From positions 1 through 64,000 of IMG/VR virus record IMGVR_UViG_3300037067_008364: DNA of 64,000 bases, one strand, 5' to 3'. Position 1 is the first letter of the stretch. Every line of letters begins with the position of its first letter. The notes below the pieces were generated by a model. That model did not search any database. It was given only the letters and a program-made list of their open reading frames with translations, and was not told where the DNA came from. Positions 2,616 through 53,491 of this stretch are shown one piece after another. This stretch comes from an uncultured virus (IMG/VR IMGVR_UViG_3300037067_008364) (taxonomy: Duplodnaviria; Heunggongvirae; Uroviricota; Caudoviricetes). A program made the position numbers and the translations under genes.

Positions 2616-2689
2616 TAGACAAGTGCATGGGAATTGAACCCACAACAGATGGCGTAGAAGCCATTGCTCAACCATTGAGCTAGCACTTT
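2616..2689 (-). tRNA. atypical/degenerate tRNA with 6-nt anticodon loop TTCTAC (Arg-TCT-derived or CTA amber-like)
   Basis: AAAGTGC TA GCTC-AATGGTT-GAGC A ATGGC-TTCTAC-GCCAT CTGTT GTGGG-TTCAATT-CCCAT GCACTTG; 1:72 mismatch, no CCA. Confidence 0.75.
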
Positions 2690-17838: not shown

Positions 17839-18173
17839 GGCATCTCCGAGTGATTATAATTTCCGTTTCACTACGAAACTATAATATATATAACCTCATC
17901 AATTACTCTTTCATCATCCGCACTAAATACCCTAAATCCCCGTCTATCAAGTTAAGCATTTCTCTTTCACTACATGACATTACTGTGATACTGGAAAAGA
18001 ATAAATAATCAACAATACAGTGAGCAAGCTTGACAGCCAGTATACTAAGAAACCGTCTAATCTTTTTCATGATATCCCCTAAGCATATTATATATAAAGT
18101 AAAGTACTGTACGCTTCCCTCGACGACTACCTACCTACCATCCCTATTTTACCAGAGTAGATATACACACTGG

Positions 18174-18237
18174 TAAATCTATAGAGATAAATCTACATGG
18201 ATAAATCTATCAGATTAAATTTATACTGGTAACATAC
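18174..18237. repeat. degenerate 14-bp-period tandem repeat (TAAATCTA core)
   Basis: Cores at 18174, 18188, 18202, 18216, 18230. Confidence 0.65.
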
Positions 18238-18823
18238 CAAGCTGATATCACATATATTATGCTACCAGCAATATAAAATTATTTCGTCAAGTTGTAAGTT
18301 ATTTACTAACAGTATGTTACCAGTATATAATCAGGTATCTGAAAACAGGTGAAAAAGCGCAAAGCGAACGAAAAAAGCGTCTCGAAAGTAAACTTGCAAT
18401 GCGTTTTAAACGCTCGCAAACAGCTTAAATTTTGCGTTTCGTATGCAACTGAATACCGAAGTACGTTTAAAGCGCAAAAATCGCTTAAAAAGCCGTTGGG
18501 CACTAAAACAGCGGTAAAAGTAGTGTACATCGGCAAAAAAACGCACGTTTGCATGCTATCCGGTATAACATACCTGTTTTCACAAGATAATTGACAGGAC
18601 AAGCGTTATTTGGTTTTCTAAGAGCAAAAAAAGCGCATACATGTTTCAGGTATAAAACCACTCTTCAGTGCAAGTCAATTCTCTTGCATACATGTATTAT
18701 ATATTCAGTATAAACCCTTATCTTATTGTATACTGTAGATTTAGTGAGGTAAACCATCAGAACAAAAATAAGACCGGACACACGTCAATAGTGTATCCGG
18801 TCGCGGAAATTACCTAATTACGA

Positions 18824-19090
18824 TCAGGCACCGGGGTCTTTAAGAATGAGAATGTTTGCTTTGTATCCTGGTTTTCCGGGGATCATCTGAAACCCGCCGG
18901 AACTGGCCACAATCTTCATCTTTCCGTGATCCCGCCCGGCTTCCTTGTCTTTGTCGTTCGGTTTTGTATAGCCGTAATCTTCGGTGAGATCGACATTCAG
19001 AGTCAGATCGGAACCGTCTATTTTGCCCTGGAGATTTGTGAACCCGAAAGATTTCGGTTTAACGTCAACATGTTTCGGATCGTTTGCCAT
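18824..19090 (-). CDS. small conserved protein (N....G..LTL.VDL...G...K..IVAS.GG family)
   Basis: AGGTAGGT RBS, GC3-rich codons, followed by a terminator-like hairpin at 18772-18802. Confidence 0.8.
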   Translation of the reverse strand: MANDPKHVDVKPKSFGFTNLQGKIDGSDLTLNVDLTEDYGYTKPNDKDKEAGRDHGKMKIVASSGGFQMIPGKPGYKANILILKDPGA

Positions 19091-19205
19091 GATGTACCTA
19101 CCTTGTTTAAGTGAGTGTGAGTGTGAATGTGAGTTTAGTGTAAAAGCCCGGTGTTACTGTGTTTTCCTATACCATATAAGTCCTTTCATATTAGGTGAAC
19201 GTGAG

Positions 19206-19349
19206 TTAATAGTCTTCACTATGTACCAAATTAAACCCGATTGCGTACTGTGAATTGTCTTGTTCATACTCTTCGGTTTCTACTATTTCCAGCAATTCAG
19301 AAATAGTCTGCAACATCTCAAGGCGTAATTGATTCTTGTTGTTTGGCAC
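19206..19349 (-). CDS. small hypothetical protein, first gene after the promoter
   Basis: GTG start after AAAGGTAGG. Confidence 0.5.
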   Translation of the reverse strand: MPNNKNQLRLEMLQTISELLEIVETEEYEQDNSQYAIGFNLVHSEDY

Positions 19350-19414
19350 GGTTAGCCTACCTTTGCGAAAGTGGATACAAGTCTCAAGGCACAAGCGTTT
19401 TTTGCAATGTGCAT

Positions 19415-19443
19415 AAAATACGAAAATCGCAAACGAATGTCAA
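19415..19443 (-). promoter_or_regulatory. sigma70-type promoter TTGACA-N17-TATTTT
   Basis: Heads the minus-strand early block. Confidence 0.7.
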
Positions 19444-19464
19444 GCGAAAAATTTCACGTGTTCG

Positions 19465-19493
19465 GCTAACGTGTTGCGCTGCAACATTTTACG
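19465..19493. promoter_or_regulatory. 29-bp imperfect palindrome, putative operator
   Basis: GCTAACGTGTTG-CGCTG-CAACATTTTACG. Confidence 0.55.
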
Positions 19494-19870
19494 CACATGT
19501 TCGACTCAGGTAAATCAGGCATCGGAACTGACGCTTACTCAGGTAGATTGACCATGTTAAACGGACAAGGGGGATATAAGATGGACAGGCGGGTAGCGAG
19601 TGCCTAGAATGTCAATACATCACCTTTTTTTCGGAGGAGGGGAAAGCGCCTATTTTATTTTTCCAGCACCTATGATTTTATTTGCAGTTGTTAAGAATAT
19701 TCTATTAGCCTGCGGAGTTACAACGCTAAAATGTGGAGGTGAGATGTGGGGTTAGCACCGTCGGTAAAACGGGGGTTGTGGTATTGGGCCAGCACCGCAG
19801 GTAGCCAACGCTTACTGCGGCGAAGGGCGAGTCGGATACGTGTAAAAGTTTACAGGATGCCGGGGCTCCC

Positions 19871-19928
19871 ATTGTAACGCCATGTAACACCATATAACTA
19901 CATGTAACACCATATAACTATATGTTAA
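19871..19928. repeat. 10-bp-period tandem repeat (2 exact copies of CATGTAACACCATATAACTA)
   Basis: Direct reading of the sequence. Confidence 0.85.
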
Positions 19929-20628
19929 GTGCAGGGGTCGGGGTTAACATAGTGGTACGATGCCGGTGAGAAGTGAGTGAGAAGTACCGGGGAAAGTTAT
20001 ACGGGGTTTACAAGCGGGGTTTTACAAATTGTATACACTTATAAATAATTGGTGACATTTTGTCTGATAATATTAAGTTGCCGTTGGTATCGTTATATGT
20101 CACTTACGGCAAACTTATATTATGAATTTACGTCAAAACTAGTGCACCTTTGAACAGTATTTTCTGGGTTTTTACAGGCGTTTTTAGCGATTTCGCATTA
20201 CAATAACACAATATCGTTATAATATGATATACCATGTCCTGTAACATTTTACACACACCATCTCATACTTTACATGAACATTGAAAAAACACTTACGCAT
20301 TTTGTATGACAAGAAAGTGTATATAACACAACAACTTACGAAGTGGCTATGTCACCTAAGTGTTTATTACTATATAGTGATAAAGGGTATAATCTAATAT
20401 AGAAATGTGATATACGTCACAAAACGCATATTTCGGTGTAAATCAATACACTAAATTATAAAAAATATAGTAACATAGTAATATTGCTATATCCGACCAA
20501 GAAAGATACGCATGCGTACAAAAAATCACCTATATTACGGAATCACGATATTGCGTAAGTTGTTGATGTGCTGGCTGTTAAGTATATTATTACAAGTGTA
20601 GTAGCAACGAGAAGACCTACCCATATAT

Positions 20629-20657
20629 AATATAACATTTTTTATTTAATTTGTCAA
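20629..20657 (-). promoter_or_regulatory. sigma70-type promoter TTGACA-N17-TATATT
   Basis: Consensus; fires into the non-coding region. Confidence 0.65.
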
Positions 20658-20900
20658 TAGACATCTGCAAAATATTATAGCACAAAAAACGGATTCGTGC
20701 TATTTAGCTATTTTATTTCTATAAGTAGGCGCAAATACTTAACTTAAGTGGTGTAAAAAAAAGTGTATGACAGTATACGTAAAATTTCGTGTATACTGTC
20801 ATACAAAAAGTAATATTACTATATCATAATATACGAACATACTAATTAAATAAAAAAGAAGCAGTTGTTTTGTTACTCTTCTTTCCGCGTTTCTATAAGT

Positions 20901-20929
20901 AATATAATCTTTTTTTCGTGTTTTGTCAA
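20901..20929 (-). promoter_or_regulatory. sigma70-type promoter TTGACA-N17-TATATT
   Basis: Consensus; a hairpin plus U-tract follows about 50 nt downstream. Confidence 0.65.
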
Positions 20930-21106
20930 GAGTGTCGCAGAGGTTTTTTAATGCAGAATTAAATGCAGTAATTGTTTTTTGTATCACGTTCTATTTAGCT
21001 TTTCAAAGTTGAAACGGACAAGCAACCCTGCCCACGGTTATTACTATTTATAGTCTCATTGTTGTGGGTTGTCGGACTTATATTATAACATCACGGAAAC
21101 TATTTT

Positions 21107-21275
21107 TTATACAGGGGGCGTACGCCAGAAAGGAGGTGGTAGAAAAATAGCGTATATACTGCCCTTGGTTTTGAATGACTGTAGGTAGGTTGTGCGCAGT
21201 ATATATAATGCCCCCTGTATAATCAAAGGTAGGTAATCTTTATAGAAGCCGAAGAACTCACGACTCCGGTTTCTG
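21107..21275 (-). ncRNA. candidate structured small RNA with anti-SD motifs
   Basis: Downstream of promoter 21282-21310; 13-bp and 10-bp nested inverted repeats; CACCTCCTTTCT and two ACCTACCT. Confidence 0.55.
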
Positions 21276-21281
21276 ACGACT

Positions 21282-21310
21282 AATATAACACATTCGCGTT
21301 TGTTTGTCAA
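21282..21310 (-). promoter_or_regulatory. sigma70-type promoter TTGACA-N17-TATATT (leftward of a divergent pair)
   Basis: Consensus. Confidence 0.75.
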
Positions 21311-21394
21311 GCACTTTTCCATGCGCGCGTACATTTTTATATTTTCGCGTTCGCGGTTTGCGCAAAGTTTTTTTCGCGTTCGTGCGTTTTTTCC

Positions 21395-21423
21395 TTGACA
21401 ACTGTTGCGGAATTTCGTATATT
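21395..21423 (+). promoter_or_regulatory. sigma70-type promoter TTGACA-N17-TATATT (rightward of a divergent pair)
   Basis: Consensus; heads the plus-strand block. Confidence 0.8.
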
Positions 21424-21592
21424 GTATGCTGTAACGTAGCGCTATGGAAACTATATGGATATACAAGGCATTAGCGAAACAAGAATTAGCTATTCTGATA
21501 TAACTAATACACCGTATATTGGGAACTTGGGCAACTCCTTTGGTTGAGAGTCCATAAAACCCAAGACCAAAAAATGAATATAGAGGAATGAT

Positions 21593-22042
21593 ATGATGTA
21601 CATAAAGTATCTTTGGTATATTATCCGCCACAAATGGTTCGTGTTTATCGAGTGTTGCAAGTACGGGCTTGTCTGGAGAGGGATAGTTCATGATATGAGC
21701 AAGTTAAGACCGAGCGAGTTTATTCCATATGCGAAGTATTTCTACGGAGAGTGGGATATATACACAAAGGCTTATATTAACGATGCGTTTGACAAAGCGT
21801 GGCTGTTGCACCAGCACAGGAACCCTCATCACTGGCAATACTGGGTGTTGAGAGAAGACGACGGTGGTACAAAGACTGTACCTATACCTATGAAGTATAT
21901 AAAGGAAATGGTCGCTGACTGGCGAGGAGCCGGGAGAGCCATTAATGGAAAAGAGAGTAATGTATATGAATGGTATGATAAGAACAAGAGCAAGATGGTG
22001 ATATGGCATCATACTAGACATAGAATAGAGAATATATTGTAA
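21593..22042 (+). CDS. DUF5662-like HD-type protein
   Basis: HK..V...HDMSK...AWLLH..RNPHHWQYW...EMVADW. Confidence 0.85.
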   Translation: MMYIKYLWYIIRHKWFVFIECCKYGLVWRGIVHDMSKLRPSEFIPYAKYFYGEWDIYTKAYINDAFDKAWLLHQHRNPHHWQYWVLREDDGGTKTVPIPMKYIKEMVADWRGAGRAINGKESNVYEWYDKNKSKMVIWHHTRHRIENIL

Positions 22043-22061
22043 CATCAATAAAGAGATTGTA

Positions 22062-22337
22062 ATGAGTAATCCAAATACAGTACCATGTACAAGCTGTAAT
22101 GGAACAGGCAGGATAAACGGTGGGTGGTGCATAGACTGTCATGGCCTAGGGAGAGTGCACCCAAATACGCCGATGCCAAGTTTCTCATATTACTTCAGGA
22201 GAGATATCACAATATCATATAACTATCAATATCAAGGATTTGTTGATACTTACGATGAAGCGATAGAACGCATGGCACAACAGCTAGCCGATGAAATAGA
22301 CAATGAAGTATTAAACGAAATAATTAATAATTCTTAA
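22062..22337 (+). CDS. DnaJ-type zinc-finger protein
   Basis: CTSCNGTG...CIDCHGLG. Confidence 0.7.
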   Translation: MSNPNTVPCTSCNGTGRINGGWCIDCHGLGRVHPNTPMPSFSYYFRRDITISYNYQYQGFVDTYDEAIERMAQQLADEIDNEVLNEIINNS

Positions 22338-22350
22338 AAGGGAATCGCAT

Positions 22351-22932
22351 ATGAGAATGCCTGAGATGATGCGAACAATAGAAAATATACTGACTCGTAA
22401 ACCCGATAAACCTGCTCCAGATAAACCTGCGCCAGAGAAGAAACCTAATACTGTTCTGTGCCCGAGATGTGGTGGGAAGAGGTTTATCAATAAGAAGAAG
22501 TGTGATTACTGTGGGGGGTTCGGGAGAGTACATCCTGACAAAGGAATAGATTCCGATGCACCGTTCGTGTTGAATAGTAAAAATATAGTTGAACATATTC
22601 AAGGTGATTTAAAGGGATTGGTAGACGAACTGCGTGGTCATGTGCACTGTGGTTCAAGAGAGGTCTACACCAAAGGAAATATACATAGTGATATGTTTAA
22701 TAATATTATAGCTCCGGGTAAAATAAGAAAATACAATGAGTATGTGTATATTGTAAATAATGATATGGAGCATAGGCTCTATAGTTATATAATAGTACGC
22801 AAGCATGAAACAGCATTTGACGATGATTACGAAGTCATAAGAATATCCAAATCAGACCTTGAAGACATGGCACTGCGCTCACTGACGGAAAGAAGAATTA
22901 TATTTGACTTATTTGATGAACTGTTTAAATGA
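22351..22932 (+). CDS. DnaJ-type zinc-finger protein with PDKPA repeats
   Basis: CPRCGG...CDYCGGFG. Confidence 0.75.
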   Translation: MRMPEMMRTIENILTRKPDKPAPDKPAPEKKPNTVLCPRCGGKRFINKKKCDYCGGFGRVHPDKGIDSDAPFVLNSKNIVEHIQGDLKGLVDELRGHVHCGSREVYTKGNIHSDMFNNIIAPGKIRKYNEYVYIVNNDMEHRLYSYIIVRKHETAFDDDYEVIRISKSDLEDMALRSLTERRIIFDLFDELFK

Positions 22933-22944
22933 AAGGAATAAGGC

Positions 22945-23214
22945 ATGGTTACATTTATATTATTTTATATTGCATGTATATTAGGAGCAATTGTTATAAC
23001 AGTTTTAGGACTATGGGTACGTGAACTGAGAAGCGAGATCAGTGCGTACAAAGAGATATTCAGCCGTATACGGTACACGCTTCAGGATTGCGTGGACAGG
23101 TGCGATATAGACAAGACAATCAACAAAGCCAGTTTAACTGCAAAGATTTACACTGTATGCGGATATCTGGAAGAAGAGATTCGCAGGGTAGATAATATCA
23201 TAGGGAAGGAGTAA
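22945..23214 (+). CDS. membrane-anchored hypothetical protein
   Basis: N-terminal hydrophobic helix. Confidence 0.65.
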   Translation: MVTFILFYIACILGAIVITVLGLWVRELRSEISAYKEIFSRIRYTLQDCVDRCDIDKTINKASLTAKIYTVCGYLEEEIRRVDNIIGKE

Positions 23215-23216
23215 TT

Positions 23217-23486
23217 ATGCGGGTAGTAATTATACTGTTATCAATATCGAGTTTGTTTTTAGCGCACAAATATGTTAAGGTCAAATGCGAGAAGATTCTT
23301 CATGAACACAATATGAAGCATGTAAGAAAGATGCTTGACGAACATACCAGTCTGTGCGCTGAATATAAAGCTGCACTTAAAGATTTCGGCAATACAAATG
23401 ATAAGCTTGTAATAGATATGATTGTTTCGTTAGAACATTTAACACAAAGATGTATGAGCGCAATACAACTATCACTTAAGGAGTAA
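23217..23486 (+). CDS. membrane-anchored hypothetical protein
   Basis: AGGAG RBS, hydrophobic N-terminus. Confidence 0.65.
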   Translation: MRVVIILLSISSLFLAHKYVKVKCEKILHEHNMKHVRKMLDEHTSLCAEYKAALKDFGNTNDKLVIDMIVSLEHLTQRCMSAIQLSLKE

Positions 23487-23820
23487 TGAACATACATGGG
23501 AGTAACCAATGTACCAAAGTTCGGCGGTAAGCAGAACAGACGTAACAAGTTTGACAGCAGGCATGCGCCGTATCCAATCAAGAGCAGACCGTATTTCAAT
23601 ATAGTGTCTGACGATGAATGGGAACGGATATTCGGGAGTAAAGACGAGGAGAAAATAAAATGAAGATTATACCATTCAAAAAAGACACAGTATGTGATGA
23701 GTGTGGATGTGTTGGAGCATTTGATGTTTACGGTGATTATTTATGCGTAGACTGTTTCAACAAATATTATGAATTAGAAGAACAAGACGAAGGCGGTGAA
23801 CAGGATGGGGAGGAAAAGAG

Positions 23821-24168
23821 ATGATAATTACCTTATGTGGTTCAACAAGATTTACATCTGAAATGTTAATATTACAATGGGAGTTAACAAAACAGGGGCA
23901 TGTTGTAATGTCATGGTGTGCGTTACCTGATGGATATTTTGACAAAGGACAAGATAAGACACACATTGGAGACCAAGAGGGCGTTAAAGAAATTGTCGAT
24001 AAAGTACATTTTCAAAAGATAGACTTATCAGACAAAGTAATAGTTTTAAATATAGGTGGATATATTGGGGAGTCAACACGAAATGAAATTAATCATGCTA
24101 TTGCAAAAGGAATACTTGTTGAATATTTAGAAGGAAGTGACAATAATGGGGAGGAAAAAACTGCCTGA
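23821..24168 (+). CDS. nucleoside 2-deoxyribosyltransferase-like fold protein
   Basis: ITLCGSTRF...H..KID.SD...VLN.GGYIGEST..EI. Confidence 0.75.
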   Translation: MIITLCGSTRFTSEMLILQWELTKQGHVVMSWCALPDGYFDKGQDKTHIGDQEGVKEIVDKVHFQKIDLSDKVIVLNIGGYIGESTRNEINHAIAKGILVEYLEGSDNNGEEKTA

Positions 24169-35744: not shown

Positions 35745-35760
35745 AAATCGCTTATATATA

Positions 35761-35852
35761 AAAAATTGTGGCGCAGTACCGTCCGATACCACGCCACACC
35801 ACAACTACACACAGGAGATTTTATGAGGAGAGAGCTCGTGAAGAGCCCACTA
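35761..35852 (-). ncRNA. candidate ~90-nt sRNA with two CUCCU anti-SD motifs
   Basis: Own promoter (35859-35887), 5' hairpin, terminator hairpin plus U-tract. Confidence 0.6.
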
Positions 35853-35858
35853 TAGCAC

Positions 35859-35887
35859 AATATATAGTATAAAATCTCTTTTGTCAA
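35859..35887 (-). promoter_or_regulatory. sigma70-type promoter TTGACA-N17-TATATT
   Basis: Consensus. Confidence 0.7.
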
Positions 35888-38753: not shown

Positions 38754-38865
38754 GCATTAACTCCTTTTATGGTTGTAATAATAGATTATAAGATGAATAC
38801 AGGCTAGCAGTTGCGAGTTCTGCTAGCCCATATTTTAGCCTGAGGAGGCTTCACAATTCGTATAT

Positions 38866-38894
38866 AATATAATAAAAACGCATCCGAATGTCAA
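38866..38894 (-). promoter_or_regulatory. sigma70-type promoter for the nrd operon (TTGACA-N17-TATATT)
   Basis: Consensus. Confidence 0.7.
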
Positions 38895-39184
38895 GTGATT
38901 TTTTTATTTTTTTTTAAATTTATACGGGGTGCGCCGACCGGCAAAGCGCCAACTGTCTCCATGATACATTCCGCAATATATCCATTGCAGTTTATCTGAT
39001 ACACACGATCCACTGTCCCCGCATATATCATAATTATCTAGGGTGCGCTCTTCATTCACCGAAGCAGTATTTTCTCAACAGCGCACCCTTTGGCTAGTTA
39101 GTTACTATAACCATCTTATTTTTGAGCTTTGACTGCTTCTGATTTTCAACTAGATACAACAAGTCCGCATAACTTGCAAAACAT

Positions 39185-39213
39185 AATATACGAAATTTTC
39201 TAACGTTTGTCAA
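39185..39213 (-). promoter_or_regulatory. sigma70-type promoter TTGACA-N17-TATATT
   Basis: Consensus; divergent from the terminase promoter. Confidence 0.7.
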
Positions 39214-41370: not shown

Positions 41371-44300
41371 ATGGCAGATCCTGTTGGAATGGCAGCCAAT
41401 TCTGCCAATAGAGATAATGAACCGATAGTTCCCGGTAGTATAGAAGCGAAGGTTGTACAGCGCAAAGCACTCGACGAAGCCATAAAGGAAAGTGAACGCA
41501 GACAACCGGCTTTATCCGGTGAATCTACGCTTGTATCGTACATACAGAACGCATGGAACGCAGCACAGAGAGCGAAGCAGGAAGTAACAGAAGAACTTTA
41601 CGAATCAGCACTTCAGCGCAGAGGTGAATATACCGCACGGAAACTTGCAGAAATCAAGAAGCTTGGCGGTTCAACTATATTCATGAAGATAACCAGCATC
41701 AAATGCCGTGCTCTTGAATCGTGGATACGTGACATTCTATCTCCTGTTGGTGATGCTATATGGACTATACGTCCTACTCCGATACCAGATATTCCAATTG
41801 GTCAAAAAGAATACATCAATCAGTATGTACAACAGCAGGTTTCCATAAACCCAGCACTTAAACTTGAAAATCCAGTAGAATACGAAGCATATCTTGAGAA
41901 GAACGTACAGAAAGAAATAGAGAAACGCGCTGCCGAAGCATGTGCCAAGATGTCAAAGAAGATAGCAGACCAGCTTGCGGAAGCCAATTGGCGCGAAGAA
42001 CTGGAAAAGGTTATCAGTGACATCGCTACTTATAAAGTAGGTGTACTGAAAGGCCCTCTTGCGGTACGCAAGAAAGATATTCTTTGGCAGCAACAGGAAG
42101 GTACCGGACGATGGGTTCCGATACGTGATGATACATTTGTAGTCCAATACAAGCGTGTATCCCCATTTGATATATATCCTTCACCTACAGCAACTAATGT
42201 CGAGAATGGTTATCTAATAGAACGTCATACAATGACACGTGAAGATTTGAACGAACTTATCGGTGTACGTGGATTCGATGAAATGAAGATACGTTCTGTT
42301 CTTGAGAAGTATGGAGAATCAGGATATAGTACAAAAATCATGGATGACCAACTCAAGGAAGAAGCTGAAAACAAGAACGATGACAATATAACAAATACTC
42401 CTGATAATACAATAGAAGTTCTTGAATTTTGGGGAAGCTGTCCCGGGAAACTCCTAGTCCAATTCGGTATTGAAGGAATAGAAAGCAACACTGACGATTA
42501 CCATATCAACGCATGGCTGGTTGGAGACGATGTTATAAAGGCTGTCATAAACCCGTCACCAATAGGTCGTAAACCGTATCATAAAACATCCTTCGAACTT
42601 GTTCCTGATTCTTGGTGGGGTCAAGGTGTACCAGAAGTAATGTCAGATCTTCAGGCGATGTGCAATGCTTCGGCTCGTGCATTGTCAAACAATATGGGTA
42701 TAGCGTCAGGCCCTCAGGGATATGTAGATGTAAGCCAGCTTGCGTCAGGTCAGGATGTACGTAATATGTATCCTTGGAAGATGTGGCTGTATGACGGTTC
42801 TGCCGGTGGTTCGTATGGCGGAGGCCGTCCTCCGATAGGATTCTTCCAGCCGAACGACAATGCCGATACCCTTATGGCTGTCTATGAAAAATTCGCACGG
42901 CTTGCAGACGATTATACTGGTATACCTGCGTATACATATGGTTCAGTTACCAATATTGGTGGAGCCGGAAGAGCTCTTGCAGATTATGAAAAAGTTTTAA
43001 CTCCATATGGGCCAATTCCAATTCGTAATATAAAGATTGGAGATAAAGTATGTAATACATATGGTACTACATCAAATGTAGTTGGAGTATTCCCGCAAGG
43101 AAAACGTGATATTGTTAGAATAAAATTTAGTAATGGTACACATATTGATTGTGATATGGAACATAGATGGAGTGTTCGCACACGCAATAATAGAAAATTT
43201 CACACACTAACAACAAGAGAAATTATAGAAAAAGGCATATTATGGAAAACTAGAGAAAAAGTATATAACAATGGAATATGTTATACAAGAGAAGATGGAT
43301 ATCTGCGTCCAAAATGGATGCTTCCTTTGATAGATAGCATTGAGTTTAAAGCTCGTGAAATAAAAATAGATCCATATACTATGGGTATATTGTTAGGTGA
43401 TGGTGATGCTAATTGTAATTTAGTTGGAATGGATGATGAAATATTTGATAGAATACCATATCAATTAGGTAAACGAATTAATAGACCAAACAATAAATCA
43501 TATAAAAAACACATAAAAGGTATAAGAAAATACTATCATAATTATGGTCTTAACTGTAAAGGTATTGATAAATTCATTCCAGAAGATTATTTGTATAATA
43601 CAAAAGAAGTTCGACTTGAACTTTTACGTGGACTTATGGATACTGATGGATATTGTACACAACGTGGGCAAACAGTATTTTGTAGTTCATCTAAAAGATT
43701 AATATATGATTTTAGAAAATTAGTTGAATCTCTTGGTGGATATGTTAGAAGTATAAATAAACAAAAAGGAGTAGGTAATACTGAAATATGTGGGGTAAAA
43801 TGTTTTGGTAGAGATCATTATAGGGTATATTTTAAATTATTCGGAGAAAAAGTATTTCATCTAAAAAGAAAACAATTGCTTGTTAAAGATGCTATAAAAA
43901 CACATATTGCTATTACTGGTATAGAATATTTAGGAATGGAAAATGCTACTTGCATATCAGTAGATTCAGATGATAGTCTATTTATATGTGAAAATTTTAT
44001 TCCTACTCATAATACAGCGACTGGTTTATCAATGTTACTTGGTAACGCTAGTAAAGGAATCAAATTCGTCTTGTCCAACCTTGATACATATATCATAGAA
44101 CCTTCTATCCGTGACCTGTACGAATTCAATATGCTATATGATCCTGATGAATCAATCAAAGCAGATTTGAAAATCGTCGCTCGTGGTACACTATCATTAG
44201 TCGAGAAGGAGCATCAACAGGCACAGCGCGTTGAATTCCTTCAGACAATCGCAACATCACCGATGTATCAGGAAATTATAGGAAAGAAAGGCGCTGCGAA

Positions 44301-44631
44301 TCTTCTGCGCGAAGTCGTCAAAGTTCTCAATATGCCAGCGGATGACATAGTTCCATCTGAAGAAGAGATTGAAGCGTCAGATGTGGAACAGCAGATGCTA
44401 CAGCAGACCGCTTCGCTGGTACAGGGACTTGTCGCAGGACAGGTATCGCCCGAGGAATTCATAGCAGCAATAGTCCAGATGTTTCCTCCGCAACAGCAGA
44501 ATGCTGTACAGCCGGGGATGAACAAAAACATGAATAGTACAAACCACGGAACGCCTCCTGCCATGTCAGATCGCACACCTGACGGACGCAGACTCGGAGG
44601 AGTTGACAGTTCTTATTTCGTTAACAAATAA
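41371..44631 (+). CDS. portal protein precursor containing an intein (about 739 aa after splicing)
   Basis: Follows the large terminase; VSPFD.YP, V.EFWG, WG.GVP..M.D.Q..CNA..R, GAGR|TATGLSML. Confidence 0.88.
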   Translation: MADPVGMAANSANRDNEPIVPGSIEAKVVQRKALDEAIKESERRQPALSGESTLVSYIQNAWNAAQRAKQEVTEELYESALQRRGEYTARKLAEIKKLGGSTIFMKITSIKCRALESWIRDILSPVGDAIWTIRPTPIPDIPIGQKEYINQYVQQQVSINPALKLENPVEYEAYLEKNVQKEIEKRAAEACAKMSKKIADQLAEANWREELEKVISDIATYKVGVLKGPLAVRKKDILWQQQEGTGRWVPIRDDTFVVQYKRVSPFDIYPSPTATNVENGYLIERHTMTREDLNELIGVRGFDEMKIRSVLEKYGESGYSTKIMDDQLKEEAENKNDDNITNTPDNTIEVLEFWGSCPGKLLVQFGIEGIESNTDDYHINAWLVGDDVIKAVINPSPIGRKPYHKTSFELVPDSWWGQGVPEVMSDLQAMCNASARALSNNMGIASGPQGYVDVSQLASGQDVRNMYPWKMWLYDGSAGGSYGGGRPPIGFFQPNDNADTLMAVYEKFARLADDYTGIPAYTYGSVTNIGGAGRALADYEKVLTPYGPIPIRNIKIGDKVCNTYGTTSNVVGVFPQGKRDIVRIKFSNGTHIDCDMEHRWSVRTRNNRKFHTLTTREIIEKGILWKTREKVYNNGICYTREDGYLRPKWMLPLIDSIEFKAREIKIDPYTMGILLGDGDANCNLVGMDDEIFDRIPYQLGKRINRPNNKSYKKHIKGIRKYYHNYGLNCKGIDKFIPEDYLYNTKEVRLELLRGLMDTDGYCTQRGQTVFCSSSKRLIYDFRKLVESLGGYVRSINKQKGVGNTEICGVKCFGRDHYRVYFKLFGEKVFHLKRKQLLVKDAIKTHIAITGIEYLGMENATCISVDSDDSLFICENFIPTHNTATGLSMLLGNASKGIKFVLSNLDTYIIEPSIRDLYEFNMLYDPDESIKADLKIVARGTLSLVEKEHQQAQRVEFLQTIATSPMYQEIIGKKGAANLLREVVKVLNMPADDIVPSEEEIEASDVEQQMLQQTASLVQGLVAGQVSPEEFIAAIVQMFPPQQQNAVQPGMNKNMNSTNHGTPPAMSDRTPDGRRLGGVDSSYFVNK
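42973..44013 (+). mobile_element. class-3-type intein (347 aa) with LAGLIDADG homing endonuclease
   Basis: Starts ALADY, block B HRW, LLGDG / GLMDTDG, block F ATCISV, ends THN|T; AT-rich. Confidence 0.9.
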
Positions 44632-51949: not shown

Positions 51950-52573
51950 ATGGCATACCCTAGATCTTCTAATCATCCTGATTATACAGGTTCTAGTAAA
52001 TTTATCCCTGAAATTTGGGATTCCAGAATTCAGGTACGTTTTTACAAGAAAACCATCTTCATGGAAATTGCTAACACAATGTATGAAGGTGACGTAAAGA
52101 AATTCGGTGATACGGTTCGTATTCGTACTTATCCTGATATCACCATCAGTAACTATTCCAAGGGACAGAAACTCAATATTCAGCTCCCTGACAGCACAGC
52201 TACATCGCTGACAATCGACAAAGGCAAGTATTTCAACTTCCTCGTCGATGATGTCGATGAAACTCAGTCTGACCTTGACCTCGTCAATGCTTTCTCTGAG
52301 ACCGCTGCCGAGCAGTTGGCTGTTGGAATTGACGCAGATGTTCTTCAGAATACATATTCAAGTGCAAACTCAAGCAATATCGGCGCTACAGCCGGTGTGA
52401 ATTCCGCTGCGTTCAACCTTGGTGCAGCCAATGCTCCTATCACGTTGACCAAAGCCAACATCCTTGAGTACATCGTTGATGTGCGTTCGGTTCTCAAAGA
52501 GCAGAACGTCCCCGACGAAAGTCTGTGGATTGTACTGCCTCCGCACTTCACCAACTTGATACCAAAATCGGAT
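51950..52573 (+). CDS. major capsid protein, exon 1 (208 aa)
   Basis: FIPEIW, N..YEG....GDTV.I, L.ID..KYF.F..DD. Confidence 0.88.
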
Positions 52574-53491
52574 TTCTTTGAAGTCCCCTGCTATAGTAAT
52601 GTTGCAGCGTAAATTGAGTGAATTGCTGGAACTCTGAAATGGGAATCAGCAGCCAAGCCCTTAAGTGGGAAGGTTCAACGACTAATTTTTTGAACAGAAA
52701 AAACCTAAGCTTTTATGCCGGAGGTTAACAGTGAATAAAGAAAATAGAGGAGTTTTAGTAGGTATGGTTTTAGGAGATGGATACATAAGAGTGGCAAGTA
52801 AAAGAGATCAAGAAATGGATAGACGCACTTCCCCACAAATTTCTTTTAGTCACTGTATGGATCAATATGAATATGCTAAATATAAAGTTGATAAACTCAA
52901 TAAAATATTTGGCGGAAAGGCTACTCTTAGAACTGGTATGTATAATACTACCTATCAAGACAATTACATAAAGTGTTATGCAAATAAAAGTAATCCCTAT
53001 TTTAAGTCTCTTAAACGTATGATGTATAGAAATGGAAAAAAATATATCACAAAACGCGTTCTTGATATGCTTACACCAGAAGGTATTGCATTTTGGTTTA
53101 TGGATGACGGAAGTTATCGTATAAACAAAAATAAAGATGGCAGAATATCTTCAGTATCGTTAACAATTAGTACCTATTGTTCAAGAGAAGAAGTTGATAA
53201 TATTATAGACTTTTTCTTGAATGTTTACGATATAATTTTTAAACCTGCATATTGTAAAAAAACAAAATTGTGGTATGTTAGAACTAATACAAATGAAGCG
53301 ATTAAATTATCAAATCTTATTTCTCCATATATTATAGATTCTATGCAATACAAATTAAGAGCAGTTAAATATGTTCAAAAAGACAAGAGTGCTCAATACC
53401 CAATTATATTTGGGTAATGATATAGTCTGATCTCATGGGAATAGAAACCATGAGAAGTTCGGGATAAAGAGCCTGAACGATAACAAAAATG
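52574..53491 (+). mobile_element. group I intron (918 nt) in the major capsid gene
   Basis: P1 GGAU|UUC-UUU-GAAGUCC; P GAATTGCTGGAA, Q AATCAGCAG, R GTTCAACGACTA, S ATGATATAGTC; terminal G; splicing restores ...PKSD-MKDAS... Confidence 0.9.
52731..53417 (+). CDS. intron-encoded LAGLIDADG homing endonuclease
   Basis: LVGMVLGDG and IAFWFMDDG; GGAGG RBS. Confidence 0.9.
   Translation: MNKENRGVLVGMVLGDGYIRVASKRDQEMDRRTSPQISFSHCMDQYEYAKYKVDKLNKIFGGKATLRTGMYNTTYQDNYIKCYANKSNPYFKSLKRMMYRNGKKYITKRVLDMLTPEGIAFWFMDDGSYRINKNKDGRISSVSLTISTYCSREEVDNIIDFFLNVYDIIFKPAYCKKTKLWYVRTNTNEAIKLSNLISPYIIDSMQYKLRAVKYVQKDKSAQYPIIFG

Follow-up and report, generated by a model that had tools for sequence, protein, structure and literature searches.

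A putative early-promoter RNA of an uncultured tailed phage with an open linker complementary to the ribosome-binding sites of a neighbouring operon

A short folded stretch in the genome of an uncultured tailed phage raises the question of whether it specifies a small RNA that silences nearby genes by base pairing, or whether its likeness to such a regulator is incidental. The initial annotation had proposed that positions 21107-21275 specify an RNA acting in trans to silence early or host mRNAs by covering their ribosome-binding sites (RBSs). The IMG/VR virus record that holds this locus is 94,377 bp long and rated complete; the window analysed here is its first 64 kb. Recognised genes for terminase, portal, capsid, tail, anaerobic ribonucleotide reductase and replication functions identify a tailed phage, and the Shine-Dalgarno sites of its genes are of the AGGAG or CAGGAGA type. 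A search of IMG/VR with the capsid protein gave a best identity of at most 45%, so that close kin are absent there. In prokaryote genomes the same protein reached at most 47% identity, with matches spread across many phyla, and the host of the phage therefore cannot be named. The locus lies in a gene-poor stretch, approximately 18070-21600, where leftward and rightward genes diverge. The only credible genes inside it are two small ones, 19349-19206 (47 aa) and 19090-18824 (88 aa).

The first step in answering the question is to ask what would be transcribed. Promoter P1 (21282-21310, minus strand) reads TTGACA-17-TATATT with a TG before the -10 element, matches the consensus at 11 of 12 positions and predicts a start near A21274, which bears out the consensus promoter of the initial annotation. 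The exact sequence TTGACA-N17-TATATT is found at eight sites in the 94-kb genome, on both strands and always in control regions (-20657, -20929, -21310, +21395, -35696, -35887, -38894 and -39213, the sign giving the strand), against about 0.06 sites per genome predicted from base composition by our own arithmetic. Since P1 is one of these eight and so belongs to a true phage promoter class, the minus strand is likely to be transcribed from near 21274. Three of the exact-class promoters stand in tandem on the minus strand of the region. One more diverges from them (21395-21423, plus strand) and drives a DUF5662 gene at 21593-22042, which matches its Pfam family across its full length (E 3e-39). 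That the candidate RNA is made, where it would end and that it would act as a repressor are inferred from the sequence.

The predicted fold is well above background. The minus-strand RNA of 181 nt reaches -48.9 kcal/mol, compared with -33.4 +/- 3.8 kcal/mol for 200 dinucleotide shuffles (z -4.1), none of which is as stable (0/200). A 5' hairpin (21244-21274, minus strand; AGAAACCGGAG...CUUCGGCUUCU), present in the minimum-energy fold, starts no further than 1-2 nt from the predicted transcription start. It is followed by the linker seed UUACCUACCUUUGAU (21222-21236, minus strand), predicted to be single-stranded, and by the main folded domain (21107-21222, minus strand). This domain is closed by a perfect 13-bp stem, whose arms 21222-21210 (TTATACAGGGGGC) and 21119-21107 are exact reverse complements. 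Within it lie an inner arm (21153-21205, minus strand), built on a perfect 10-bp stem between 21205-21196 and 21162-21153 and displaying the loop motif CAACCUACCUACAG at 21192-21179, and a second loop, CUACCACCUCCUUUCU (21127-21142, minus strand). The hairpin and both stems are thus where the initial annotation had placed them. Its three unpaired motifs are likewise all predicted to be open, with in silico mean unpaired probabilities of 0.75 for UUACCUACCUUUGAU, 0.96 for CAACCUACCUACAG and 0.94 for CUACCACCUCCUUUCU.

The 3' end of the RNA is less sharply defined. The main domain was considered as an intrinsic terminator and rejected, because an A-run (AAAAAAUAG) rather than a U-run follows the 13-bp stem on the minus strand. 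The plus strand carries AAUCAAAGG at the corresponding place, and the stem is absent from the terminator scan. A weak 7-bp hairpin lies approximately 80 nt 3' of the domain, and a possible extended -10 element (TGTTATAAT, 21090-21082), read from the sequence, also follows it. The first strong terminator downstream of P1 is a perfect 15-bp hairpin followed by T8 (20764-20805, minus strand), which is the likely end both of P1 read-through and of the transcript from the promoter at 20929. As the domain itself has no terminator and the weak hairpin and the strong terminator lie further downstream, the RNA could be about 170 nt long if it is processed, and otherwise about 270 nt or, to 20764, about 520 nt.

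Neither known families nor several familiar kinds of element account for the fold. An Rfam search of 18000-24000 returned no family at E <= 1, and across the whole window only two tRNAs reach the gathering score. A 6S-like RNA, a tRNA-like RNA and a riboswitch were dropped for want of an Rfam match, and an RNase III site was dropped, the helices being short. An invertible segment was also dropped: its 90-bp core is short in our judgement, and among the joints listed none changes strand. The GC-richer non-coding stretch at 19445-20060 has no significant fold on either strand (z -1.5 and +0.4).

The strand of action requires separate consideration. With the help of G-U pairs the plus strand folds even more stably (-65.6 kcal/mol, z -5.3), and folding energy therefore does not decide the strand. 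A functional plus-strand RNA would expose one perfect and two variant Shine-Dalgarno-like sequences, among them AGAAAGGAGGTGG, the best Shine-Dalgarno match of the genome, and could act as a sponge for ribosomes or the 16S tail, or as the message of a tiny open reading frame. We regard this as very improbable. No plus-strand promoter of the exact class lies upstream of the element, and within approximately 400 nt none of at least 9/12 matches points through it; the divergent plus-strand transcript starts beyond the candidate RNA. None of the three motifs has an ATG, GTG or TTG at working distance behind it, and to the left of the element no plus-strand gene is found for more than 3 kb.

The minus strand could instead be read as protein. 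A 194-codon frame (21691-21107) spans the whole control region, and if it were a real gene the hairpins would be incidental. An open frame of this length is improbable by chance at 36% GC (approximately 0.01-0.1 by our estimate), and the ESM Atlas holds the 194-aa sequence letter for letter, so that it is on record as a predicted protein. Its coding score is nevertheless -0.004 per codon, against +0.18 +/- 0.20 for 116 small open reading frames elsewhere in the genome, and its strand has more C than G, contrary to most real genes tested in the genome. It has no Shine-Dalgarno sequence before its ATG, contains two exact-class promoters and overlaps the start of the DUF5662 gene on the opposite strand. 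Searches recovered no PHROG or Pfam family and no relatives in the JGI metagenomes, and the Atlas model is poor (pLDDT 0.44, pTM 0.23). On reading the sequence, no open reading frame with both an RBS and a start codon was found after the predicted RNA start. The frame looks spurious, a false gene call over a stretch that is probably non-coding, as the initial annotation had held; a real 194-aa gene is hardly credible. The practical hazard is that a predicted protein on record conceals an entire control region.

What, then, could such an RNA pair with? The proposed targets form a two-gene operon on the minus strand, behind a promoter at 19415-19443 (TTGACA-17-TATTTT, 10/12 matches) and closed by an intrinsic terminator at 18772-18802 (12 pairs, then a T-run). 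The first gene (19206-19349, 47 aa) has a coding score of +0.22 and no Pfam or PHROG match; its RBS, CAAAGGUAGG (19356-19365), lies 6 nt before GTG 19349. The second (18824-19090, 88 aa) encodes a phage hypothetical protein, with a coding score of +0.39 and an Atlas model (pLDDT 0.70) resembling viral hypothetical proteins; its RBS, AAGGUAGGUA (19095-19104), lies 6 nt before ATG 19090. Over 10 nt, each RBS is exactly complementary to the linker seed, so that both complementarities reported by the initial annotation are real. The targets lie 1.9-2.2 kb from the candidate RNA on the same strand.

These matches can also be ranked within the genome. When the linker UUACCUACCUUUGAU was paired with 144 start regions (mean -6.3 +/- 2.9 kcal/mol), its two best partners were gene 19090 (-16.8 kcal/mol) and gene 19349 (-16.5 kcal/mol). 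Among 100 shuffles of the linker, two reached the best energy and none the second-best. Given that three segments were tested, the corrected chance of the best match is approximately 0.06, and the two targets count as roughly one event rather than two because both share the rare RBS motif AAGGUAGG. Co-folding of full-length RNAs again ranked gene 19090 first of 143 (ddG -14.4, compared with -4.6 +/- 2.5), with a duplex from -14 to -1 relative to the ATG; gene 19349 was weaker (ddG -7.3) and fell outside the top 15 of 143. The other two motifs behave differently. The loop ACCUACCU pairs with phage RBSs no better than chance (96/100 composition-matched shuffles were as good), and the same is true of the 16S-tail-like CACCUCCUUUCU (29/100). 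Perfect complements of at least 10 nt to the three open segments number 9 genome-wide, against about 8.5 expected by chance on our arithmetic, and a sliding duplex prediction over the whole genome was uninformative, as it allowed long loops. Of the three motifs, the linker alone, whose two best partners are the operon genes, thus matches RBSs moderately better than chance; the loop, the 16S-like segment and the total of 10-mer matches do not exceed it.

These mixed statistics leave room for the main rival, in which the RNA is real and its RBS matches are incidental. The tandem promoters would then transcribe into an origin-like region, for activation or priming of replication or for insulation against read-through, and the fold would do no more than stabilise or process the transcript. 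The gene-poor character of 18070-21600 suits this explanation, as do iteron-like repeats at 19873-19925 and 18174-18224 and an AT-rich trough (GC 0.25-0.28) at 20600-20950. Three tandem strong minus-strand promoters without credible genes behind them point the same way, and two of the three motifs, together with the total match count, are at chance. The explanation does not tell us why CCUACCUU is carried by one transcript only, and by one that adjoins the only two genes with the RBS AAGGUAGG, nor why the fold is predicted to leave each of the three pyrimidine motifs open. Family matching against Pfam and PHROG also identified no replication initiator gene beside the gene-poor region. We consider an incidental match doubtful, at odds of well under one half, and tentatively place the occlusion of early RBSs by a trans-acting RNA ahead of it as the best reading of the sequence, itself somewhat short of even.

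The distribution of the motifs around the locus bears on a different possibility. The genome has four copies of AGGTAGGT, every one of them between 18128 and 21234 (3.1 kb; scan-statistic estimate 1.4e-4), two in sense orientation in early leaders and two in antisense inside the candidate RNA. The shorter GGTAGG has 7 of its 17 genome sites inside the same interval, two of the seven overlapping. Its four minus-strand sites are all in leaders, namely at both operon RBSs, in the first bases of the transcript from the promoter at 20657 and approximately 60 nt before gene 18070. Two of these further leaders may also pair with the RNA. In the leader of gene 17903-18070, GGUAGGUAGGUA (18128-18139, minus strand) contains a 10-nt complement to the loop motif and pairs with the linker on co-folding (ddG -16.1); GGGUAGGU (20616-20623, minus strand), at the very start of the transcript from the sibling promoter 20657-20629, gives a co-folding ddG of -13.6.

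Such a cluster might equally belong to the DNA. The (AGGT)n motifs could be binding sites for a phage regulator in either orientation, and the nested inverted repeats a protein-binding or cruciform element. Copies of the motifs do cluster within 3.1 kb on either strand, the stems consist of Watson-Crick pairs throughout and are hence strand-neutral, and the plus strand folds at least as well as the minus strand. Two of the sites, however, lie exactly 6 nt before start codons, which is the position of an RBS, and only a single site overlaps the start of a promoter. A promoter and a 5' hairpin with nested stems of 13 and 10 bp just behind them resemble the design of an RNA, and family matching against Pfam and PHROG recognised no DNA-binding regulator near the element. 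A DNA-level element is accordingly quite unlikely.

Elsewhere in the genome a second unit of similar build was observed. The promoter at 35887-35859 drives a 93-nt unit (35852-35760; fold z -4.0) that has a hairpin at its 5' end, exposes CUCUCCUCAUAAAAUCUCCUGUGUG and finishes in a 14-bp terminator with U6. Its seed, AUCUCCUGUGUGU, mirrors the consensus RBS of the phage, ACACAGGAGAU. Its open stretch pairs most strongly with the start region of the gene that begins at genome position 88802 (-25.3 kcal/mol), an energy that 4/100 shuffles reach. A pairing energy of -12 kcal/mol or stronger is predicted for 46 of 143 start regions, a count that none of 100 shuffles attains. As a parallel unit read from sequence, this candidate would support the theme of anti-RBS RNAs.

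The same unit can be enlisted for a broader kind of decoy. An RNA made abundantly from a strong promoter, with three anti-Shine-Dalgarno-like faces, one of them equal to the 16S 3' tail over 12 nt, might titrate Shine-Dalgarno sequences across a large number of mRNAs, both host and phage, or a factor recognising that tail. The segment CACCUCCUUUCU, which we take to be the 3' tail of many 16S rRNAs (a 12-mer match), is predicted to be exposed, with an unpaired probability of 0.94. The complement of the second loop, AAAGGAGG, occurs only once in the genome, at this locus; it is also the complement of the exposed CACCUCCUUU, and its single copy is not followed by a start codon. The loop ACCUACCU can pair with AGGAGGU if one base is bulged, as read from the sequence, and the 93-nt unit complements the consensus phage RBS, with the start-region count given above. 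For the anti-Shine-Dalgarno sequence, PMC10783764 gives the CCUCC core. Against the decoy, the 16S-like segment does no better than shuffles on phage RBSs, its 12-mer matches the tail of many 16S rRNAs in general, and stoichiometric titration needs very high RNA levels. A general decoy is thus unlikely.

Comparative searches covered the DNA, the neighbouring genes and the environmental assemblies. No GenBank phage matches the DNA of 20500-22000. The neighbouring DUF5662 gene has 292 relatives in IMG/VR, the best at 57% identity, of which 80 were kept; none of the 80 shows DNA similarity to 19351-21600 (best E 0.09). The first 39 of them have neither a cluster of GGTAGG or Shine-Dalgarno motifs nor a comparable gene-free gap beside the gene, and in the eight relatives that were read the gene sits within rows of genes on the same strand. 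The 88-aa target protein has no relatives in IMG/VR or the JGI metagenomes, and neither an exact 33-mer nor the three-motif pattern gave a match in IMG/VR (0 each). When 3.6 kb of the region was compared with five whole records, out of ten records of capsid relatives, the best E was 0.057; a cluster of weak matches in one such record was rejected as coding sequence. The phage occurs at landfill, wastewater or groundwater sites, and among the sequencing runs listed for it none is of RNA. Landfill and wastewater assemblies contain the identical sequence, with 0 differences over the element. The four runs compared consist of contigs, among them X2 (20469-21807), X3 (20682-21187) and X4 (20862-21123), which cover it in this way and reveal neither ends nor strand of a transcript. 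Loose-end matches of X2 at 21096 and 21264 were rejected as a variant, since they look like chance matches to promoter-like sequence of other organisms.

In the preferred reading, occlusion of early RBSs in trans, a host RNA polymerase of the sigma-70 type would read P1 (21310-21282) to give a non-coding minus-strand RNA from near 21274. Behind a protective 5' hairpin, this RNA would expose the linker UUACCUACCUUUGAU, and the 13-bp stem would close its two-armed domain. The linker would then pair in trans with the unusual AAGGUAGG RBSs of the two neighbouring operon genes, 19349-19206 and 19090-18824, and probably also with the GGUAGGU sites in the two further early leaders (18139 and 20623). 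The duplex is predicted to cover the Shine-Dalgarno sequence and to reach within one base of the start codon, which would exclude the 30S subunit and limit translation of the early proteins. The candidate RNA and its target operon have the same promoter class, so that repression has no obvious timing logic, a point that counts against it. A more ambitious extension, which we think unlikely to hold as a whole, is a translation-control layer made of a set of anti-RBS RNAs driven by early promoters. In it, 21274-21107 would provide a seed for the private AAGGUAGG of the first early operon and 35852-35760 a seed for the consensus RBS; together they might time or cap whole classes of genes, and the 16S-tail copy might compete with host ribosomes for Shine-Dalgarno sequences.

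Several known systems help to place the candidate. In the immI operon (c4-icd-ant) of phages P1 and P7, c4 RNA base-pairs in trans through short exposed segments; the RBS of the first gene downstream is among its sites, and c4 is cut from the same transcript as its targets. Rfam presumably contains a c4 family. Like c4, the candidate lies upstream of the genes that it would control, on their own strand, and short exposed sequence would cover RBSs. Unlike c4, it is preceded by a promoter of its own and is separated from the operon promoter at 19443 by two terminators (20805-20764 and 20703-20677), which speaks against processing from a common transcript. It has no Rfam match (E <= 1, 18000-24000), hence no sign of family homology, and it is larger, about 170 nt or more. 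Immunity or lysogeny genes, which accompany c4, were not recognised in this phage by PHROG searches, in which most open reading frames match no family of known function. No repressor or antirepressor appeared among 106 PHROG queries (105 distinct open reading frames), and the sole integrase-like match was faint (E 6e-6, 163 aa). The candidate would work most like P1/P7 c4, yet with its own promoter, the intervening terminators and no Rfam match it lacks the features that define c4.

Other regulators share parts of the design. Gram-positive small RNAs with C/U-rich seeds, such as RsaE/RoxS and the hairpins of RNAIII, use pyrimidine motifs in loops or linkers to pair with purine-rich Shine-Dalgarno regions and block initiation. 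PMC6158497 describes RsaE as targeting rocF mRNA via direct interactions. The candidate resembles these RNAs in having several pyrimidine-rich motifs in loops or linkers. It differs from them in being phage-encoded, in having no sequence or Rfam relationship to them and no terminator hairpin directly at its end, and in that its seed is ACCUACCU, which fits the rare AAGGUAGG RBS, and not UCCC or CCCC. Lambda OOP and P22 Sar, also small RNAs of phages, regulate phage genes through base pairing, a mode that for the candidate is predicted. They lie opposite their targets and are fully complementary to them, whereas the targets here are on the same strand, 1.9-2.2 kb away, and share 10 nt.

The layout of the region also recalls T7, in which the tandem, near-identical host-polymerase promoters A1, A2 and A3 head the early region and folded RNA elements follow. 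The T7 early promoters all feed one long early mRNA, and the hairpins are RNase III sites between genes. Both regions combine tandem strong promoters with folded RNA elements, but the units described here are separated by terminators and free of genes. If real, the candidate would be a new, orphan base-pairing small RNA of a known kind. Small RNAs encoded by lytic phages turn up in transcriptomes, and to our knowledge few of them have known targets. The present locus would then make a small and readily testable example: an RNA that has a consensus promoter to itself and a seed matching a rare RBS that is common only to the two genes of the neighbouring operon. The eight-copy promoter class and the second RNA candidate suggest that this phage lineage may control translation at the RNA level more widely.

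Eight exact TTGACA-N17-TATATT promoters were found by a genome-wide pattern count. Named by their first coordinate, with the sign giving the strand, they are -20657, -20929, -21310, +21395, -35696, -35887, -38894 and -39213. These eight sites are a sharply defined class of putative early promoters. A-tracts and the extended form cTTGACAa often lie upstream of or at such sites.

The unit of promoter 20929 (20755-20929, minus strand; promoter 20929-20901) contains no ORF in the ~140 nt downstream of the promoter and terminates with a perfect 15-bp hairpin followed by T8 (20805-20764). Its initial bases (AGAAACGCGG) are similar to those of the P1 RNA (AGAAACCGG), the candidate anti-RBS RNA predicted for promoter 21310. 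The latter candidate and two promoters are spanned by a 194-codon open frame on the minus strand (21107-21691). The ESM Atlas contains an identical sequence for its product, with a pLDDT of 0.44, and the frame is probably a false gene call. Automatic annotation that takes it as a gene would mask the control region that it lies in.

This gene-poor control region covers 3.5 kb (18070-21600). It carries origin-like traits: repeats of 14 nt (18174-18224; 20002-20027) and of 20 nt (19873-19925), and a stretch at 20600-20950 that is rich in AT, where GC content falls to 0.25-0.28. Folding of its GC-richer portion, 19445-20060, was not significant.

On the plus strand at 51950-53417, the similarity of a 220-aa ORF to a profile of major head proteins is confined to the first half of the profile (positions 38-225 of 410). 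Downstream of this ORF lies a gene for a LAGLIDADG homing endonuclease (52731-53417). An intron or intein may interrupt the capsid gene; no intron reached the gathering score in Rfam. The 1086-aa protein encoded at 41371-44631 (plus strand) is a fusion: its N-terminal half (residues 52-524) resembles a portal or head-tail adaptor, and the P-loop domain that follows (~510-890) matches terminase, helicase-loader and primase families. A tRNA-like gene at 2618-2689 (minus strand) scores 48 bits as tRNA in Rfam, and ARAGORN could not assign its anticodon ('ct' at position 33).

Behind promoter 39213 (38900-39213, minus strand), no ORF is evident in ~280 nt, and a perfect 10-bp stem is formed by AGGGTGCGCT and AGCGCACCCT at ~39087 and ~39045. 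The leader of promoter 38894 (38760-38894, minus strand) contains a small hairpin, AGCCU-CCUC-AGGCU, which displays CCUCCUC ~80 nt upstream of AAAAGGAG, the RBS of a small ORF, and may be a cis anti-SD element.

A second sRNA-like unit lies at 35760-35887 on the minus strand. Its exact-class promoter (35887-35859) precedes a predicted 93-nt RNA whose fold has a z-score of -4.0. This RNA begins with a hairpin, leaves CUCUCCUCAUAAAAUCUCCUGUGUG unpaired and closes with a terminator of 14 bp and U6. The open stretch is complementary to the phage consensus RBS. Pairing at -12 kcal/mol or better was predicted with 46 of 143 start regions, a count matched by none of 100 shuffles, and the strongest pairing (-25.3 kcal/mol) is with the gene whose start lies at genome position 88802. 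In shape, this unit is closer to a textbook sRNA.
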